Assembly: GCA_021323375.2 (NCBI GenBank)
Contig: JAJPCT020000022.1
Coordinates: 1-64,000 of the forward strand
From: Candidatus Wolframiiraptor gerlachensis
GTDB lineage: Archaea; Thermoproteota; Nitrososphaeria_A; Caldarchaeales; Wolframiiraptoraceae
Reading direction: 5' to 3'
DNA: 64,000 nt
Shown here: piece after piece, positions 12,068 to 49,900 of the stretch
Numbering within the stretch: position 1 is the stretch's first letter
How the letters are laid out: each line of letters begins with the position of its first letter
Program-made: the position numbers and the translations under genes
Notes under the pieces: generated by a model
Told to the model about the DNA's origin: nothing
The model's database searches: none
Seen by the model: only the letters and a program-made list of their open reading frames with translations

Positions 12068-14915
<2,848 letters not shown>

Positions 14916-38787: not shown

Positions 38788-39234
38788 TTATTCACCTGGG
38801 GGCGGTGGAAGTGATGTTACAGTAATTGTCGTCGTTGATGTAGATGTAACAGTTGTTGTAATGGTTCGCGTGGTTGTCGTCAGGCTTGTAATCGTCTCCG
38901 TGGTTGTTATGGAGTAGGTGGTTGTGGAGGTGATTGTTGTCGGGCTTATGCTCGTCACCGTTGTGGGGATAAAAGTAGCCTCTGTTTTTGTAGATATTTG
39001 GGTGAGCGTCGTAGGGCTCGTAATGATACTATAAACAGTTTCCATGCCTGTCACAGTTACTCTGACCGTTTCAGATGAGGTTTCCGTGGATATGACCGTA
39101 TGAGTAACTGTTGTCGGGCTAAAGATGGTAGTACTCCTAGCCTCGGTCAGGGTTGACATCGATAAAACCCCTATACCTATGATCATTAAAACAGCTATAA
39201 TCGATAAAGTTAACGCTATGATATTCAGCCTCAC
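38788..39234 (-). CDS. membrane-anchored Thr/Ser-rich protein
   Basis: N-terminal hydrophobic helix, low-complexity Thr-rich body, ends in PPPPGE. Confidence 0.6.
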   Translation of the reverse strand: MRLNIIALTLSIIAVLMIIGIGVLSMSTLTEARSTTIFSPTTVTHTVISTETSSETVRVTVTGMETVYSIITSPTTLTQISTKTEATFIPTTVTSISPTTITSTTTYSITTTETITSLTTTTRTITTTVTSTSTTTITVTSLPPPPGE

Positions 39235-39456: not shown

Positions 39457-40317
39457 ATGAGATTTAGGTCCATTAGGAGGCCGCTGATATGTAGTCCGGC
39501 TGCTAGGCTGCTTCTTGAAGGTAAGCGCCGCGGCCTTAAAAGTGTTAGGACATCGCTGGATCTTGGGAGGAGCTATGTTGAGGTTGAGCTCCTCGATTAT
39601 GGCATACGCTATGGTGATGTGGAGCTTAGCTGGGATAATATCAACCTCGCTTGCTCCCGGGAGAGGGATATCTATGTTATCGAGGGCGGGGAGCTTATAC
39701 CGCTCTCAATAGCCTCGGAGCATTTTTACAAGCTCGTTCTCGTCAAGTGGGGTAAGCCGCCGACACTCGAGATAGATGGCATACACATGCATAGAATTCT
39801 AGATGTTACGCCCGATGTGGACTCGGAGATGAAGGTGGCTCTCCTAGGGAACATCAGGTGCTGGAGGGTTCTTGATGTTTGCACGGGGCTTGGATACACA
39901 GCGATAGCGGCGCTGAAGAGGGGTGCCTGCTCGATCCTGACAATAGAGAAGGATGAGAATGTGCTGAGGCTCGCCGCCCTCAATCCATGGTCGCGGGAGC
40001 TTGAGGATGATCGGGTTGAGCTTGTGCTCGGCGACGCATTCGAGGTCTTGGAGGAGTTTAAGAACGAGTTCGACGCCGTGATCCATGATCCCCCGAGGAT
40101 GCCCCTAGCAGGGAGCCTCTATAGCTTGGAGTTTTACGTGAAGCTGGCTAGGGCCCTCAAGCCCGGGGGAAAGATCGTGCATTATGTCGGCCAGCCGGGA
40201 ATCCATAGGGGTAGGAGGATTTGGAAGGGGGTTCTCGAGAGGCTTAGGCAGGCTGGATTCGATGCAAGCTATGATGAGAGGTCTCGATGCGTCTATGGTA
40301 GGAAACTGGGAAAATAA
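39457..40317 (+). CDS. archaeal class I SAM-dependent methyltransferase
   Basis: PTLEIDGIHMH, VLDVCTGLGYTA and IHDPPR motifs. Confidence 0.85.
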   Translation: MRFRSIRRPLICSPAARLLLEGKRRGLKSVRTSLDLGRSYVEVELLDYGIRYGDVELSWDNINLACSRERDIYVIEGGELIPLSIASEHFYKLVLVKWGKPPTLEIDGIHMHRILDVTPDVDSEMKVALLGNIRCWRVLDVCTGLGYTAIAALKRGACSILTIEKDENVLRLAALNPWSRELEDDRVELVLGDAFEVLEEFKNEFDAVIHDPPRMPLAGSLYSLEFYVKLARALKPGGKIVHYVGQPGIHRGRRIWKGVLERLRQAGFDASYDERSRCVYGRKLGK

Positions 40318-40334
40318 GAATAATGATGGGTTTT

Positions 40335-40826
40335 TACTCTGATGGGATCTCGTCTCTCAGCCCATTAACCTAATAGATCGTCATGTCCTATAAATCGCTC
40401 CACACGTCGTCTAGATACTCCGGTAGCCCTGACCTTTCCACGATTCTGACACTACTGCGTACACCTCACTCATAGACTGTTATAGTATAGTGTGGTTCTA
40501 TCCTGTATGGTAGCCTGCCATGTTCTCTCATGAGATATGCTAGATCTCTTCATCCGTTGGGATTATTATCCAGTGAGATCTCCTCTAGAGCCTTATAAAA
40601 CTCCTCATTCCCGATCTCATGGTAATAGGGTGTATGTCTGAAAACTGAGACTTTAAGCCTCTTATTATCCCTGTCTCGGCAATACCATACCTGCGCCTCC
40701 TCGCCCAGCTCAGCAGCATACTTCTTCTCTACGTGGAAGATCTCATGCCTGTTCGCCCTCCGCTCGCGGGGAATCTCGACTCAGAGCCCCTCAACCTCCC
40801 TTAGCGCTCTCATTATGCCCCTTTCC
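40335..40826 (-). pseudogene. decayed gene of unknown function abutting element copy 1
   Basis: Protein-like fragments (MRALREVEGL*VEIPRE...FYKALEEIS; DLAYLMREHGRLPYRIEPHY; IVERSGLPEYLDDVW) broken by stops and frameshifts. Confidence 0.45.
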
Positions 40827-40831
40827 CATGT

Positions 40832-41956
40832 TGCATTTTCGGGCTGGCCCTCAATGAATAAGTTGAGGGTTCATGTTGAGGGTATGTGTGGGATGTAGAT
40901 GATTGGGGTTTACTATGTTGATACTGCAATTCCAAGTGACAGGAAGAAGAGGGGAAGAGTAAGACTCATACGGTCTTCGACGGGGGGCAAGGTATTCAAA
41001 GTGAGAAGATTAACCGAGCTGGAGGCGCCGACGAGATATACATCAATTCGCTGCTCCCGGAGCTATATGACGAGATCCTAGAATCGTTGAGGAGGGGTGT
41101 TAGGGTATACCTGCTGAAGGATGTCAGAAAGCTGATGAGGATGGAGAATAACTTGAAGAAGAATGATGAGAATAATGCTATGCTATTTTCAAGAATTCCA
41201 AGAGAGGCATTCAGGTTGTTGACGATTGAGGAGATAGAGCTTAAGGCGGAGACACATCCGTTGATAAATAAGTATGAGTGGCTTGTGCGGTGGAGGAAGC
41301 AGCTGAGGAAGTTGGTTAAGGACGGCTATGACTATAACTTCAAGGAATCAATAAGGCTCATGGAGATGGATAGGAGGAAAATATCCTCCGAGGAGATTAT
41401 CAGACAGGTGGACAGCCTCCCCATTTACGGGGAGATTTGGTGGAAAGCTTGCGAGATCCTTGGGGCTCAGGAAGAGCGCTGAGCTAGCCATACTGGCGAT
41501 AGGGTTGCCGCCTCATTTGCCGATGGTGAGTTGAAAACGTTATTGGGGTTGGTTCTAGGCGGAAATAGAGGACGGTACAACCATAGGTTAAGAGATCATA
41601 TTACGAGATTCGCAGTAAACCTTTACATAAACGCCGAGAAAGGATGCCAGTATTTCGGATAAGGTTATTGAGGTTGTTAATTGTCTGCCGAAAAAGCGGG
41701 CAATATCCAAATTAGAGTGATGATTCTAAAAATGCTACGATAGCATACCTTATGACGACAAATCCGCTGGCCAGCGGCAGTAAAAGCCATAAAAGCCGGT
41801 AAGGTTATTAGCGTTTCCCCACTATGGATGGGTTTATAAACCGTCCATAGATGGTTATGGCAGGATCTCCTGCCGGTCTTTATGGCTACGAGGACTCGCC
41901 GGCCAGCCACCTCCCCTTTTCCCCTAAAGCTCACTCACTTTCATGATTATGAACTT
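40832..41956 (+). mobile_element. decayed IS110/Tas-like element, copy 1 (pseudogene 40899 to about 41780 plus conserved non-coding ends)
   Basis: Aligns end to end with 48765-49812. Reconstructed protein: YYVD..KTH.VFDG..EIYINS..VYLLKD..KKNDENNA..coiled coil..LKTLLGLV..GRYNHRLR. Boundaries are uncertain. Confidence 0.65.
41766..41907 (+). ncRNA. candidate structured guide RNA of element copy 1
   Basis: Nested stems GCTGGCC/GGCCAGC, AGCCATAAAAGCCGG/CCGGTCTTTATGGCT and CTATGGA/TCCATAG surround a symmetric internal loop; conserved in copy 2. Confidence 0.55.
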
Positions 41957-42098
41957 CATGTGATACGAATATAGTAAACTGATACTTGGAGCTCGCGGAT
42001 TCGAACTTTCATACTTGTTAAATTTTTTCGGCCCATCCCTCCTAATACACTCCTAAGAGATCCCCTTATACTACCCTTAATCTAAGATTCTGCCGGAT

Positions 42099-44225: not shown

Positions 44226-45797
44226 GTGGTAGAAGATCTGGACAATAAGGATTTTGAGCTGATAGTTGCTGAGAGCCCGCAAATCGAAATTCCTATACCG
44301 CATGAGAAGCTTCTCTCTTTCATAAAGCTGGTTGAGGATCTAGGCTGGAATAAGGCGAGGATTAAGCGCTATATCACAACAGCTCTAAGATTGAGGGAGC
44401 TTGAGAAACGTTATGGGAAAAGCTATGCAGCCCTAGTCAAGACCTATGAGAAGCTCGTGAGCGACGAGGTCAAGCTCAGATACTCCATCGAGCAGCTCAT
44501 GGAGAAGCGCAGGCAGATGGAAGAGGACTTCAAGCTATATATGGAGCAGTATAAGCTGACCTTAGAGGCTGTTCAGAACGTTGGAAAGCTTGTCGAGGCA
44601 CTAAAGATGAGGGGCCTCGATCTAACCGACCTCGAGAAAGCCTTGAAGGCCCTTAGCTTCATGAAGGAGGCGGGACATGATGTCGAGGAGATCGTGAATA
44701 GACTGAAGAATATCGAGAGCTATGAGGCCTCGATCAAGGAGCTTGAGAGGATGATCGAGGAGATGGAAAAGAGCCTTGAGAATCTTGAGAACGAGAAGAA
44801 AAGGCTTCTCAAGGAGATTGAGGAGATACATGGGTTATCCGGGGATCTAGAGGACTTGAGGAGGGCGCGGGAGGTGCTGGAGGAGAGCATTAAGCAGGCC
44901 GAGGCGGAGCTTAACGAGGTATCTAAGAGGCTGGAGAGCGCTAGATCAGAGCTCGAGACCCTCATCGGATATAGGGCCTCATTCGAGGAGATGCGCAGGA
45001 TGCTCGATGAGCTCGAATCCGAGGTAAATAGGCTTAGGGCTGAGAGGGAGTCGCTCCAGAATGAGGTTGCACAGCTTCTTGGTGCGCGGAATGAGATAGG
45101 GGAGATTAGGAGGAAGCTGGAGGAGGGGCGGTCGAGGCTCGCGGCCATCGAGAAGGAGATCAGGGATAGGCAGTCCTATCTCGAAATACTGGAGGGCGAG
45201 CTCGCGGCCGCTTACTCCATCCTTAAACTCTTCACAGAGCCGGGCGGCGTTGAGGTTGAGGATCTCGAGCCCCTCGTCACACATCTCCAGAGGATCTTGA
45301 AGATTAAGAGGGGTGAGCTCCCGGCCCTGAAGCCCCTTGAGCCCCACATACTAAACAAGGTTAAGGAGGATCTAGCATCGCTGATTATGCCCTATGTGAG
45401 GGGCGAGTTTGTTCCCAAGAGGGCCTTCGACCAGCTTGAGAAGGAGGTTAAGAGATTGAGGGAGGAGAATGAGGCTTTGAGGGAGGAGCTAGAACCCCTC
45501 AGGAAGCTCTTGGAGGCTAGGCCGCCAACCGCACCAGCCGAGCAACCGAAGCCATTTCTCGAGGCTATTACTCCGAGCAGCGAGGTTTTAGAGCTTAAGA
45601 CGCTAGATCGGGGCAAGAGGTTTAGGATAAAGTGCCCATCATGTGGTGAGATATCGGTGGCAATCGCCCCGGCAATCGAAGAGCTTGGGGAGCTCGCGTC
45701 GAAGGGTTGTAAACTGAGGTTTACGTGCAGGTGCGGCAAAACAATAATCATTCCGCCCGATGTTCTCTTGAAGAAACTGGAGGCGGGCGGCGTTTGA
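44226..45797 (+). CDS. long coiled-coil protein with a C-terminal Zn-ribbon
   Basis: About 300 aa of heptad repeats; CPSC...CRC at the C-terminus; no Walker A motif. Confidence 0.8.
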   Translation: MVEDLDNKDFELIVAESPQIEIPIPHEKLLSFIKLVEDLGWNKARIKRYITTALRLRELEKRYGKSYAALVKTYEKLVSDEVKLRYSIEQLMEKRRQMEEDFKLYMEQYKLTLEAVQNVGKLVEALKMRGLDLTDLEKALKALSFMKEAGHDVEEIVNRLKNIESYEASIKELERMIEEMEKSLENLENEKKRLLKEIEEIHGLSGDLEDLRRAREVLEESIKQAEAELNEVSKRLESARSELETLIGYRASFEEMRRMLDELESEVNRLRAERESLQNEVAQLLGARNEIGEIRRKLEEGRSRLAAIEKEIRDRQSYLEILEGELAAAYSILKLFTEPGGVEVEDLEPLVTHLQRILKIKRGELPALKPLEPHILNKVKEDLASLIMPYVRGEFVPKRAFDQLEKEVKRLREENEALREELEPLRKLLEARPPTAPAEQPKPFLEAITPSSEVLELKTLDRGKRFRIKCPSCGEISVAIAPAIEELGELASKGCKLRFTCRCGKTIIIPPDVLLKKLEAGGV

Positions 45798-46192
45798 GTA
45801 GCCGTAAGATGAACCCGATAGTAGTGATGCTCTCATGGAGGGCTAAGAAGCTCAGGGCCGAGGATGTTGAGAGGATACTCTCCGCGGTCGCTTCGATAAG
45901 CGAGGGGCCATTCACGCTCACGGACGTCATCGAGAGGCTCCCAGACGATGTCAAGATCGACAGGAACAAGAGGAGGAGGGTTGGAAATCTCCTCCAAGCC
46001 CTAGTCTCAATAGGATATCTCTCGAAGCCGAGTGAGCGGAAATGGGTTAAAAATGCGCCAACGCTGAGCCACTTCTTGAGCCAGCATCTCTTAGAGCTCT
46101 CATCTATCGAGATGCTCTCCCCGCGTCCTCCACCCGCTGGCGGGAAGGTGATCGGCCGCCGCCAGAAGCTTGATCGTGCATCCGCAACATGA
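45794..46192 (+). CDS. hypothetical winged-helix-like protein
   Basis: TTG start overlaps the upstream TGA; FTLTDV...RVGNLLQALVSIGYLSK...W pattern. Confidence 0.6.
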   Translation: MSSRKMNPIVVMLSWRAKKLRAEDVERILSAVASISEGPFTLTDVIERLPDDVKIDRNKRRRVGNLLQALVSIGYLSKPSERKWVKNAPTLSHFLSQHLLELSSIEMLSPRPPPAGGKVIGRRQKLDRASAT

Positions 46193-46586
46193 TTGAGCCC
46201 CTCCAGCTCAATGGTATCTCGGTGAAGCTCCACTCCCTGTTGAGAAACCTGGCGGCTATGATAGGTTTCGGCCTTATCTCAGCTCCACACTGCGGGCACC
46301 TGACGATAAATAGCTTGCAGAACTCGAGGAGCCTCTCGACCTGGGAACTGTTCAGGAGCACATATGACTTGTTCGTAGATTTTACCTCGATTGCTAGGAG
46401 CTCGCCCGAGTCCACTGCGATCACATCTGGTTTCGGGAGCTTTCCAGAGCCGCTTCCAGGGGTCCTAACAGCATATGTCCCAGGCTTTCCCCTGTCTGCG
46501 AACATCCTCACGAGATAGTACTCGCCCTCATAGCCCATTCTAGCCTTATATCTTGGTGATGACGGGTTTCTCGGCCTCCTCGGCAT
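46104..46586 (-). CDS. hjc: archaeal Holliday junction resolvase (Hjc family)
   Basis: G..GE, VRTPGSGS, PDVIA and IEVKS motifs; contains an inserted CPQC. Confidence 0.8.
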   Translation of the reverse strand: MPRRPRNPSSPRYKARMGYEGEYYLVRMFADRGKPGTYAVRTPGSGSGKLPKPDVIAVDSGELLAIEVKSTNKSYVLLNSSQVERLLEFCKLFIVRCPQCGAEIRPKPIIAARFLNREWSFTEIPLSWRGSIMLRMHDQASGGGRSPSRQRVEDAGRASR

Positions 46587-46668: not shown

Positions 46669-48546
46669 TTAGAACTCGAACTCGTATGTTCGAGTTCTTA
46701 CAGCTCCCTGCATGATTGGGTAGAGCTTGGCTAGCGCCTCATCCAGCCCAAGCTCCATCAGCTTCTGCGGAGTTGGTATGCCGTTCTCATCCCAACCTCT
46801 CAGCTCATAATATGTTTTAAGCAACTCGGCGAACTTCTCCCTATCCAAGGTTATTCCCTTGGTCTCTCCCTCCGGCACCGGGTCCTCGAAATCCCTTGCC
46901 GGGAGGGTGTCATCCTTCGCGCATACCCTCTTCCTGAGGTAGGCGATGACCCTTACCAAGTTCCAGACCCTCTCGGAGCACTTGAGAAGATCATCCAGAG
47001 TCGTCTCCCTACCGGTAACCGCGGAATAAGCCTCCGCATAGATGTTTGGGTCGATCTTCAGCTCAACCCATGGAAGCCTGCATACTCCAAGCATGTCGAA
47101 TAATGGCCTGATGTGCTGGAGGTAGATCACCTTCTCAGCCTTATCGCGGCTATAGCTCGCCCGCCCAACTTCGACATCATATGTTATCGCCCAAGACCGA
47201 TTATGATGTGCTCCTATATCGCACGTAGCGTAGCTAAGGGCCATTGCCGTGGCGGCCCTATGATCATATGCACTTATCTCGAGGCCCTTCACATGCATCG
47301 CGAACCTCTCTGAGCCCCGCTTAACATAGCTCGCGACAGCCTTAACGCCCTGTGCTAGGAGGCTCCCTATCCCCCTCCTATAAGCTATCATCTCTATGAG
47401 CTGATAGATCTTCTCGGCTTCCCCCCATGAGATCTCGAAGCCGAGCTCATCCTTGGTTATCAAGCCCCTCTGGAAACACTCTATCAAGAATGCTATAACG
47501 GATCCCGTGCTTATCGTGTCGATGCCATAGTAGTCGCAAAGGTAATTCGCTTTAGCAACCTCCTGAAGCGTCCTTAACCCGAGGTTTGAGCCCAGCATCC
47601 CGAGGTTCTCGTAATCAACGACCACGAAGTCGTCATCAATTCTTAGCGTATGGCCGCATGGTATTATGCAGTTTGCGCAAGCGGAGACATAGACCTGAGA
47701 CTCGTGGACGGCTCTCCCGGAGATCGCGTCAGCATACTCGTAGACGGTCTTCTGGAAGTTGTATGTTGGGAGGGCCTCCACGCCATTAGCCCATTCAACA
47801 GTCATGTTCGTCCCATACTTCATCCAGCTATCATATGCTGGGCTCGACCTAACCTCTTCCATAAGCCTCCTATTCACCTCTCTAAGCCTCTCAGGGTCTG
47901 CGACATCTACGGATCCGCTTCCTCGAGCCACGATCGCCTTGAGGTTCTTGCTGCCCATCACCGCACCCATCCCCGTCCTCCCAGCCTGTGAGTGCCTCCG
48001 CTCCCTAAGCCCCCAATCCACGTTTATCGAGGCATAGACCACCATCTTCTCACCCGCAACCCCTATCGTCGCTATCGAGCAGTCTCCATACCTCTCTCGA
48101 AGCACGCGGTCGGCATCCTTCGAGCTCATCCCCCATAGGCTTGGATCCTCGACCACCTCGACACGCCCATCATCGACTAGGAGGTAGCTCGGTGCATTAG
48201 CCCTACCCCTTATCACCAGCGCATCTATGCCAGCCCTCCTCATCATATAGCCGAGGTATCCGCCGACACTGCTATCTCCATATATGCCAGTCTGGGGGCT
48301 TATTGCCGCGAAGCTCGTCTTGCATCCGCCGAGAAAGCCCGTCGCCGCCAACGGGCCCGTCGCAACCACAAGAACATTTGATGGATGGGTTCCATGAATT
48401 ATCTCATTAAGATTCTCGAAGATTATCTGCGCACACCAGCCCCTCCCGCCAATGAAGTCCCTAATCAGCCTCTCATCAGGATCATAGGTACGCACCCTAC
48501 CCTCCGTCAGATCTATCTCAGCTATCCTGCCATAGCCATGCATCAT
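46669..48546 (-). CDS. second AOR-family oxidoreductase (FOR/WOR-like)
   Basis: GGRG, GAVMGSKNLK, CxxCxxxC, DYEN and DTIS motifs. Confidence 0.92.
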   Translation of the reverse strand: MMHGYGRIAEIDLTEGRVRTYDPDERLIRDFIGGRGWCAQIIFENLNEIIHGTHPSNVLVVATGPLAATGFLGGCKTSFAAISPQTGIYGDSSVGGYLGYMMRRAGIDALVIRGRANAPSYLLVDDGRVEVVEDPSLWGMSSKDADRVLRERYGDCSIATIGVAGEKMVVYASINVDWGLRERRHSQAGRTGMGAVMGSKNLKAIVARGSGSVDVADPERLREVNRRLMEEVRSSPAYDSWMKYGTNMTVEWANGVEALPTYNFQKTVYEYADAISGRAVHESQVYVSACANCIIPCGHTLRIDDDFVVVDYENLGMLGSNLGLRTLQEVAKANYLCDYYGIDTISTGSVIAFLIECFQRGLITKDELGFEISWGEAEKIYQLIEMIAYRRGIGSLLAQGVKAVASYVKRGSERFAMHVKGLEISAYDHRAATAMALSYATCDIGAHHNRSWAITYDVEVGRASYSRDKAEKVIYLQHIRPLFDMLGVCRLPWVELKIDPNIYAEAYSAVTGRETTLDDLLKCSERVWNLVRVIAYLRKRVCAKDDTLPARDFEDPVPEGETKGITLDREKFAELLKTYYELRGWDENGIPTPQKLMELGLDEALAKLYPIMQGAVRTRTYEFEF

Positions 48547-48764
48547 TGATGGTCCGCCAAGGTAAACAATATCCCCCTAATTAATTTATTGCCTCGCATA
48601 CCATGGGCTTAACATCGGCATAGATTTCCCCTAAATTGTTAGGGGGGAGGTTTCCGCCTAGCTTTGTCTTCTCTCCGCCATCAAGACCATAGGTTGTATA
48701 GGTCTCTGCCCTCCACCTATCAGCATCCGTGATCATTAATTAATATCCTTTTATAGAGTGTTTT

Positions 48765-49812
48765 TGCCATTTTCGGGATGGTCCTCAATGAATAAGGGGA
48801 GGGCTCGTATTGGAGGTATGTGTGGGTGTGGATGGCTAGGGTTTATTATGTTGATGTGGCGATTCCCGCTGACAAGAAGAGGGGGAGGCATAAGACGCAT
48901 GCGGTCTTTGATGGGGGCAGGGTTTTCAGGGTCAAGAAGCTGACGGAACTTGAGGGTGCCAGCGAGATATCTGCTAAAGGATATTGCCAAGCTGAAGAGG
49001 CTGAGGATGGAGAATAATATGAGGAAGAGTGATGAGAATGATGCAATGCTACTTGTACAGATTCTAAAGGAGACATTTAGGTCGTTAATTATCAAGGAAC
49101 TAGAGCTTAAAATGAAGATGAGACCATTAGTGAAAGAATATGAGAAAATCATGCGTTAGAGAAGAAGATTGACGACACTAATAAAACACGGCTTCGACTA
49201 CAACTTCAAAGAGTCAATAAGACTTATGAATGTAGCTAGAATAAGGATTTCTGGAAAGATTGCTAGTCAGATAGCCATCCTTCATATACTTCATAATATA
49301 CGAAGAAGTTTATAAGAAGGCTTGTAAAATTCTCGGTCTCAAGGAATAACGCTGAACGCGCAATCCTAGCAATAGAACTACCGCTTCATCTACCACTAGT
49401 AAGACTGAAAGGGCGATATAATCATAGACTGAGAAGGCATATCGCAAGGCTTGCAACAAGCCTTTACAAAAAAAAATGTTAGTTAGTTAGTTTTAGAAAG
49501 AACATAAGATTTTTCGAATGAGATTGCAGAAGTTAGTAATCGCCTGCCAAAGAAGCAGACAATAGTCGGATTAGAACTACTCATTTTGAAAGCACTGCGA
49601 GTAGCATATCTTATGACTGTGAAGCCGCTGGCGGCGAGTAGTAAAAGCCATAAAGGCCGGTAAGGTCGTTGCCGGCATCCCAGCATGGAAGATCCCATGA
49701 ATTCATGTATGGTTTTAGGTTTGATACCTGCCGGCTTTTTATAGTTATGAAGACCGCCAGCCCACCCCGCTTTTAACCTTTTATTAGTAAGGCTTTTCAC
49801 GACCTACAACGT
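48765..49812 (+). mobile_element. decayed IS110/Tas-like element, copy 2 (pseudogene 48832 to about 49641); may extend to 48730-49882
   Basis: MARVYYVDVAIPADKKRGRHKTHAVFDGG..RKSDENDA..RYNHRLR with internal deletions and stops; ends homologous to copy 1. Confidence 0.65.
49627..49761 (+). ncRNA. candidate structured guide RNA of element copy 2
   Basis: Stems GCTGGCGG/CCGCCAGC, AGCCATAAAGGCCGG/CCGGCTTTTTATAGTT and CATGGA/TTCATG; internal-loop strand lengths match copy 1. Confidence 0.55.
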
Positions 49813-49900
49813 TTAAAGGCCCTCCTCGACAAAGTACTAGTAATTCAATTTTCCCAAAACGCCTAAAGCTGGAAAATGATCAAATTAAAGAATTCTCATG

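Follow-up and report, generated by a model that had tools for sequence, protein, structure and literature searches.

Why should a gene that resembles one for an RNA-guided nuclease occur as dispersed, element-like copies? The question is raised by the window studied here, the whole stretch of 64,000 nucleotides that was analysed (G000:C22:1-64000; G000 is this archaeal assembly of 1.28 Mb, 89% complete, and C-numbers are its contigs), in which two decayed copies of such a gene are found. A first-pass annotation had described the product as either a divergent IS110/IS1111 recombinase or a TasR-like RNA-guided nuclease. We put the probability at roughly 65% that it belongs to a TasR-type RNA-guided nuclease family whose members cut empty sites and are spread by homing through repair, an activity that is predicted. 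Five related genomes (G002, G005, G006, G008 and G011) were used for empty-site comparison, and close protein relatives lie in named genomes including Ca. Wolframiiraptor and Ca. Geocrenenecus, which the consulted part of PMC9246946 places in Caldarchaeales. The features of the two copies are as follows.

40294..40306 (+): copy 1 left half-target plus 3-4 nt past the centre; matches loop B with one internal mismatch
40307..42085 (+): copy 1 insert, 1779 nt; absent from G005, G011 and G008
40550..40780 (-): decayed small cassette ORF of copy 1; also in the C26 TnpB element and the C23 and C21 LAGLIDADG-type elements
40834..40892 (+): conserved upstream motif of the cassette; 18 matches in the genome, of which one is marginal; does not mark an end of the element
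40899..41778 (+): copy 1 pseudogene for the RuvC / coiled-coil / Nop protein; 8 frameshifts, D50N, D95N
41540..41593 (+): short loop region of copy 1 without the IS110 SG motif; reads LLGLVLGGNRGRYNHRLR
41766..41907 (+): copy 1 predicted guide RNA hairpin, overlapping the gene end; outer stem, two-sided variable loop, inner stem
41805..41817 (+): copy 1 loop A; reads as the reverse complement of the empty site's right half
41855..41867 (+): copy 1 loop B; identical to the left half of the empty site
48535..48545 (+): copy 2 left half-site; partial match to copy 2 loop A
48546..49861 (+): copy 2 insert, 1316 nt, at the start of an aldehyde:ferredoxin oxidoreductase gene; empty in G002, G011 and G008
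48832..49639 (+): copy 2 pseudogene (frameshift-aware alignment)
49626..49766 (+): copy 2 guide hairpin; loop A 49666-49678, loop B 49713-49725
49862..49872 (+): copy 2 right half-site remnant; reverse complement of copy 2 loop B

The protein motifs quoted by the annotation are present in the window sequence, and copy 1 aligned with the intact paralogue at G000:C1:50105 over 40899-41778, with 172 of 294 residues identical in a frameshift-aware alignment. Besides the eight frameshifts, copy 1 has a 2-codon deletion, and its D50N and D95N changes fall at two catalytic positions; copy 2 has lost ~71 nt in the RuvC part and ~32 nt across the SG-loop region. Sequencing error is an unlikely cause of the frameshifts: the host genes on either side have open frames, and substitutions have also hit two catalytic Asp codons. 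A Pfam search of the broken window frames gave no match. The window copy is dead, and the family is alive: G000 carries seven intact or nearly intact paralogues of ~290 aa, with a mutual identity of 39-65%. Dispersal had in fact been understated, as we found 33 protein-level matches (which are not copy numbers) and 31 hairpin loci in 1.28 Mb. A profile search returned 250 family proteins among 7992 scored candidates, and matches were present in 29 of 61 related genomes, at up to 39 per genome. With 357 clusters at E <=0.001 among 1.84 billion representatives, the family appears to stand clearly apart in sequence from IS110, itself a very large family. Additional nuclease genes of the family, more distantly related, were seen in G011 (L091-L164; matches on L101 and L150), and sequence searches of solved structures with the proteins A2 and A4 revealed no relative. 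Members of the family are already included, without description, in Data S1 of PMC12045711, in the clade that seeded the Tas search there; AF-A0A7C2Q076 and AF-E6N9E0 are among the members in its seed alignment. Six short family motifs had no match in the part of Table S1 of that paper that was searched.

The proposed architecture of RuvC, coiled coil and Nop-like domain was supported by a structure model of an intact paralogue (pLDDT 88). Its top Foldseek match was TasR (9mty, E 2.6e-6), followed by the IS110 recombinases ISCro4 and IS621; superposition gave Z 17.4 with TasR (rmsd 3.6, 255 aligned) and Z 16.1 with ISCro4. The RuvC acidic tetrad is D8, D50, D92 and D95, with D and not E at the second position, and is kept in the intact paralogues. 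D8, D50, K90 and D95 were invariant in 22 diverse members, and D92 was kept in 36 of 51 distant ones. A weak PF01548 match was found in 54 of 121 close homologues (best E 1.4e-4).

We then considered whether the protein could be a true IS110/IS1111 recombinase after all, with a displaced serine and an unrecognised donor loop. The similarity to ISCro4 and IS621 favors this, as does S194, which is conserved in close homologues. However, a conserved serine is the defining feature of the C-terminal domain of IS110 (PMC11208160, the part consulted), and the annotation's suspicion that the serine loop is missing, which had rested on one damaged copy, now holds in seven paralogues and 121 close homologues: the spacing from a conserved Gly to a conserved Leu is 12-14 residues in all of these, and SG occurs between the two in 0/121 of the close homologues. 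Among distant representatives SG was present in 6 of 42, at scattered positions, and S194 was retained in just 15 of 51. PF02371 was not among the 25/30 families listed for homologues, and it was not found in G000 (89% complete).

At the 3' end of each copy lies a single hairpin of ~145 nt, which overlaps the stop codon and has a folding z of -5.4 for copy 1 and -2.8 for copy 2. Every one of the 31 loci in G000 has a single hairpin, and both loops were readable in 26, a guide set that leaves out five partial hairpins. When 18 hairpins were aligned, 95% of cells paired, as compared with 19-43% in slid controls, and 13 of 30 pairs had changed on both sides. We regard the hairpin as a covarying, predicted guide RNA. 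Its order is outer stem, GG(U/C), a 13-14-nt loop A, CC, inner hairpin, GG(U/C), loop B, CC, outer stem, so the GG(U/C)...CC motifs are symmetric and flank both loops. Free variation is confined to the two loop sides; the one remaining internal loop is small, hardly varies between copies and has no conserved element ends that it could match. Rfam returned one match only, at chance level (E 0.78). In two hairpins, at G000:C16:72546-72711 and at L085:1160-1329 in G005, the interior is inverted between the outer stems; the loops still match the empty site, read in the opposite direction.

Within G000 itself, none of the 26 guides had a contiguous target above background. The flanks of the elements behaved differently: exact half-matches of at least 10 nt numbered 14 and were spread over 10 of the 26 loci, where 650 non-cognate pairs would predict 1.6. 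In relatives without the insert, the two half-targets are joined. For copy 1, loop B followed by the reverse complement of loop A matched the joined site at 21/21 positions in G011, 20/21 in G008, 18/21 in G005 and 15/21 in G006, exactly at the position of the 1779-nt insert, and this orthologous site was the best match in 1.18 Mb of G011 (21/22). The guide of copy 2 matched its own empty site in G011 at 15/20, and the orthologue of copy 2 in G005 matched the right half over 12 nt. The guide of an element on C4 reached 19/19 against the G005 empty site.

In order to set these matches against controls, junctions were scored out of 20 in 1.02 Mb of G011, where 16 of the 26 guides had a paired junction and 10 had not; only the arrangement A then reverse-complemented B was scored. 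The 16 loci gave 19, 19, 18, 18, 17, 16, 16, 15 (five times), 14, 14, 12 and 11. A score of at least 16/20 was thus seen at 7 of 16 loci and in 0/400 non-cognate pairs, which reached 15 ten times. Further sites outside this test scored 17, 17 and 15, and one guide was matched by a single half only. An unbiased scan placed the own site in the top three for 7 of 26 guides; an eighth flag fell at a different place nearby, and the C5 element sits ~20 bp beside its best target, not inside. Since the polarity of A followed by reverse-complemented B is that of the IS621 target-binding loop, the RNA is predicted to be made from the gene's strand. We also analyzed 30 loci, mostly from other genera, after nine had been excluded as duplicates or for lack of an intact hairpin. 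Downstream, a reverse-complement match of at least 10 nt was present at 8 of 30 loci, 7 of the 8 in what we read as the predicted loops. This is a modest excess over the 4 loci with a match of the wrong polarity, and one of these 4 is expected, being an inverted hairpin. The upstream test gave 1 direct and 7 wrong-polarity matches and hence no support. An 11-nt match of copy 1 loop B near the left junction of copy 2 was set aside as chance, with ~0.6 expected per genome and the wrong geometry.

Some targets are gene ends, and others we take to be the beginning of a gene for a ribosomal protein and the 5' ends of two RNA genes, one for a tRNA and one for 5S rRNA. At 40294-40317 the insert gives the upstream methyltransferase gene a new stop codon, the stop of the relatives lying within the target; gene ends or starts are similarly replaced at C1 and C10. 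The data also bear on a defence role, in which a dispersed TIGR-like system would act against viruses or plasmids and the flank match would be incidental. Twenty-six different guides in one genome do resemble a scattered array, and some guides have no identified target. Nevertheless, the matches at the elements' own junctions lie far above controls, and viral contigs searched with close-family patterns contained no relative. The defence reading is already contradicted for most testable loci, and we consider it barely credible.

The elements are inserted at the target centre, in either orientation. Duplications across the centre measured 4, 4, 5, 6, 7, 8, 8 and 8 bp, while four junctions, including that of copy 1, lose 18-39 bp on one side instead; in the filled site of copy 1, the right half-target and ~21-24 bp of host DNA are gone. 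TasR leaves 8-nt 3' overhangs (PMC12045711, section 7), and the duplications, which never exceed this length, would fit its size, their polarity not being readable from them. Nine inserts of 644-2551 nt had an end identity of 24-26% and a longest inverted repeat of 4-6 nt; their right junction lies 38-473 nt from the hairpin RNA, and two inserts end in host-gene fragments from other loci. At least two short inserts retain cassette DNA at the 5' end and so look internally deleted; retro-insertion was rejected for the short copies, no PF00078 having been found in G000 (89% complete). Ragged ends could in part come from later decay, and true IS110s can have flexible ends too (10.64898/2026.08.14.744561, as far as consulted). 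The motif at 40834 was rejected as an IS1111 subterminal repeat, as the junctions lie hundreds of nt beyond it.

Several single sites show further changes. A different 1.6-kb insert occupies the copy 1 site in G002 (L081, G002:C92:10791-12404), with only the last ~24 bp in common; part of it looks like a decayed transposase gene, judged from its sequence. A 22-nt piece of the right end of copy 1 (42040-42060) resembles G011 host DNA at another element's site (21/22, E 0.04), a weak hint of flank carried from an earlier site. At the site of the C4 element, the centre of the target holds a few additional bases in G002 (L064:1448-1454), and G011 carries an unrelated insert of ~600 bp (L065/L124), both of them possible repair scars.

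These ends complete the comparison with IS110. The right-end RNA is as in IS1111, and the target geometry is like that of the IS621 target-binding loop (PMC11208160, in the part consulted), which speaks for a true recombinase; yet there is a single variable loop and, in the nine inserts, no core, no subterminal repeats and no fixed ends. The family is not an IS110 member, as three features fail (serine loop and PF02371, second guide loop, defined ends). The true-IS110 reading is already largely refuted and, in our view, very improbable, so that of the annotation's two options the TasR-like nuclease is the one that fits, its activity being predicted. The same ends weigh on a serine-independent RNA-guided transposase, whose RuvC domain would use the donor 3'-OH instead of water and join the element into a site chosen by the guide. 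Against it, the nine inserts share no conserved donor ends or inverted repeats, duplication length is not constant (4-8 bp), and 18-39 bp are missing at some junctions. Moreover, paralogues that are only 39-65% identical indicate old site-specific lineages and not a recent burst. We regard such a transposase as unlikely.

A cassette of small genes upstream of the family genes was found to precede TnpB (PF07282) and LAGLIDADG (PF14528) genes as well, with the same coupling of cassette to start codon for all three. PF07282 was above cut-off on C26 and C2, and PF14528 was above cut-off on C23 and weak on C4. TnpB-type genes stand behind the cassette at G000:C26:3877-5148, C2:30890-32059, C18:~13500-14778 and C17:100591-101946 (L165, L166, L167, L009), and free-standing LAGLIDADG-type genes stand behind the leader gene at G000:C23:95034-95870, C4:1905-3062, C12, C21 and C6 (L016, L168, L169, L170, L017). 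The C26, C23 and C4 cassettes are absent from G011, as are the C23 and C4 LAGLIDADG inserts, with 2-bp overlaps at the junction. Downstream of the C18 TnpB gene lies a remnant of the 3' end of a dual-loop hairpin, as if one nuclease had replaced the other. The cassette leader, of 122 aa, is conserved (168 homologues) and was confidently modeled as a four-helix bundle. No Pfam or PHROG match above cut-off and no Atlas match was obtained for the cassette proteins. Elsewhere in the window, a 148-aa Thr/Ser-rich ORF with a hydrophobic N-terminus and no Pfam match lies at 38788-39234 (-), and at 44226-45797 (+) and 46104-46586 (-), between the copies, a long coiled-coil protein is encoded beside genes for Hjc, the archaeal Holliday junction resolvase, and an SSB-like OB-fold protein.

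The cassette suggests one further explanation, namely that protein and RNA only select or protect the target while another factor, a cassette product or a host enzyme, moves the DNA. That three unrelated nuclease genes have the cassette in common, and that its leader is conserved and folds confidently, would agree with this. On the other hand, the leader is a plain bundle without a Foldseek match at E <=0.001, several elements, including the window copies, retain parts of the cassette only, and the acidic tetrad of the family is intact, unlike that of repressor-type TasR. We therefore find a mere selector or protector improbable.

Homing by an RNA-guided nuclease remains our preferred explanation, and a guide that matches each element's own empty site explains why a nuclease is found in dispersed, element-like copies. 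In this mechanism a dimer would bind the hairpin RNA, loops A and B would pair with opposite strands over 21-23 bp, and the two RuvC domains would cut one strand apiece, with a stagger of ~8 nt; the pairing of guide with DNA is what we infer from the sequence matches. The filled allele would be immune because the insert splits the target, whereas an empty allele would be cut and then repaired from the filled one. A new site would be reached if a piece of DNA carrying the element were captured by a break, possibly one at a site of partial match, which would explain the ragged ends and the passenger host DNA. This step is the weakest link, as homing alone does not explain first arrival. The guide would then adapt by mutation or by half-guide swaps between copies. 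L192 (G000:C16:117110) and L193 (G000:C23:2355) have the same loop A but different versions of loop B, and their flanks are rearranged compared with G005: there, the left flank of one element runs straight into the right flank of its partner, with 8 bp of overlap. The pattern suggests an exchange of half-guides between copies, and misassembly may be an alternative.

Taken together, a TasR-like chemistry with the lifestyle of TnpB or of free-standing homing endonucleases is predicted. With TIGR-TasR (TaTasR, 9mty; PMC12045711, in part) the family shares the fold of RuvC, coiled coil and Nop, the length of ~290 aa and four acidic residues, and with both TIGR-TasR and the stem-loop TIGR systems in the consulted part of 10.64898/2026.09.09.750476 it shares a dual-spacer guide read in tandem on opposite strands, and the stem-loop unit. 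It differs in having one guide unit per gene and not an array (31 loci), in being chromosomal, multi-copy and inserted, in spacers of ~10-11 nt with a target of 21-23 bp, and in hairpin motifs GG(U/C)...CC in place of CCA...UG; box C (CCA) and box D (UG) motifs may, however, diverge if covarying, as a section of PMC12045711 states. TIGR membership fails on the array feature. Stem-loop guides inside tas genes are reported in 10.64898/2026.09.09.750476, as far as consulted, and its database could contain the family's clade. IS110/IS1111 elements (IS621 8wt6, ISCro4 9t56; PMC11208160, in the part used) are alike in overall fold, in the right-end RNA (IS1111), and in a loop that sets the insertion site with the left/right polarity of a target-binding loop. 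In contrast, the family has neither serine loop, PF02371, donor-binding loop, core nor subterminal repeats, and its ends are ragged.

OMEGA TnpB (IS605/IS1341, restorative homing; PMC13565253, in part) likewise has an RNA across the 3' end of the nuclease gene that is aimed at the empty site. TnpB fills the same cassette slot in G000, but its fold is another one, and no TnpA-like partner was identified for the family elements. TnpB guides derive from the element flank, whereas the guide of the family is internal, split in two and not self-updated from the flank. Free-standing homing endonucleases (intronless homing; LAGLIDADG, Seg/Mob; same part of PMC13565253) also form inserts without discrete boundaries that carry flanking DNA, their genes are inserted so that the nuclease's own target is destroyed, and LAGLIDADG genes fill the same cassette slot; the difference is that site recognition in the family is by RNA, as predicted, and not by protein.

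In the freely accessible literature searched, no description was found of a single self-targeting guide in such elements. The natural targets of TIGR-TasR are mostly undetermined, and these targets and the origin of spacers are open questions in the consulted parts of PMC12045711 and 10.64898/2026.09.09.750476, whereas the target of the present family is its own empty site. The two variable loops of the window hairpin spell the element's own landing site, so that intact relatives probably act as RNA-guided DNA cutters that spread by homing; this would supply natural targets for a class of guides that mostly lack known ones. As a natural target can be identified for each guide, pairing rules, cut position and guide evolution become testable from genomes and one tube. 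If our reading is true, RNA-guided homing arose a second time, in a lineage of proteins separate from TnpB and IscB, and the family would offer compact (~290 aa) thermophile nucleases with a 21-23-bp target. The finding also touches on the question of how IS110 came by its donor loop and its serine. More tentatively, and with doubts that outweigh our confidence, we suggest that the family represents a third lifestyle for Nop-domain RNA-guided proteins, between TIGR-Tas and IS110, with a target loop only and no serine or donor loop, which installs itself by cutting alone at sites set by its guide, gains new specificities from half-guide swaps and uses a cassette interchangeable with TnpB and LAGLIDADG. 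If this is true, these elements would be a living model of the state that preceded bridge recombinases and would preserve a natural record of the reprogramming of tandem-spacer guides.
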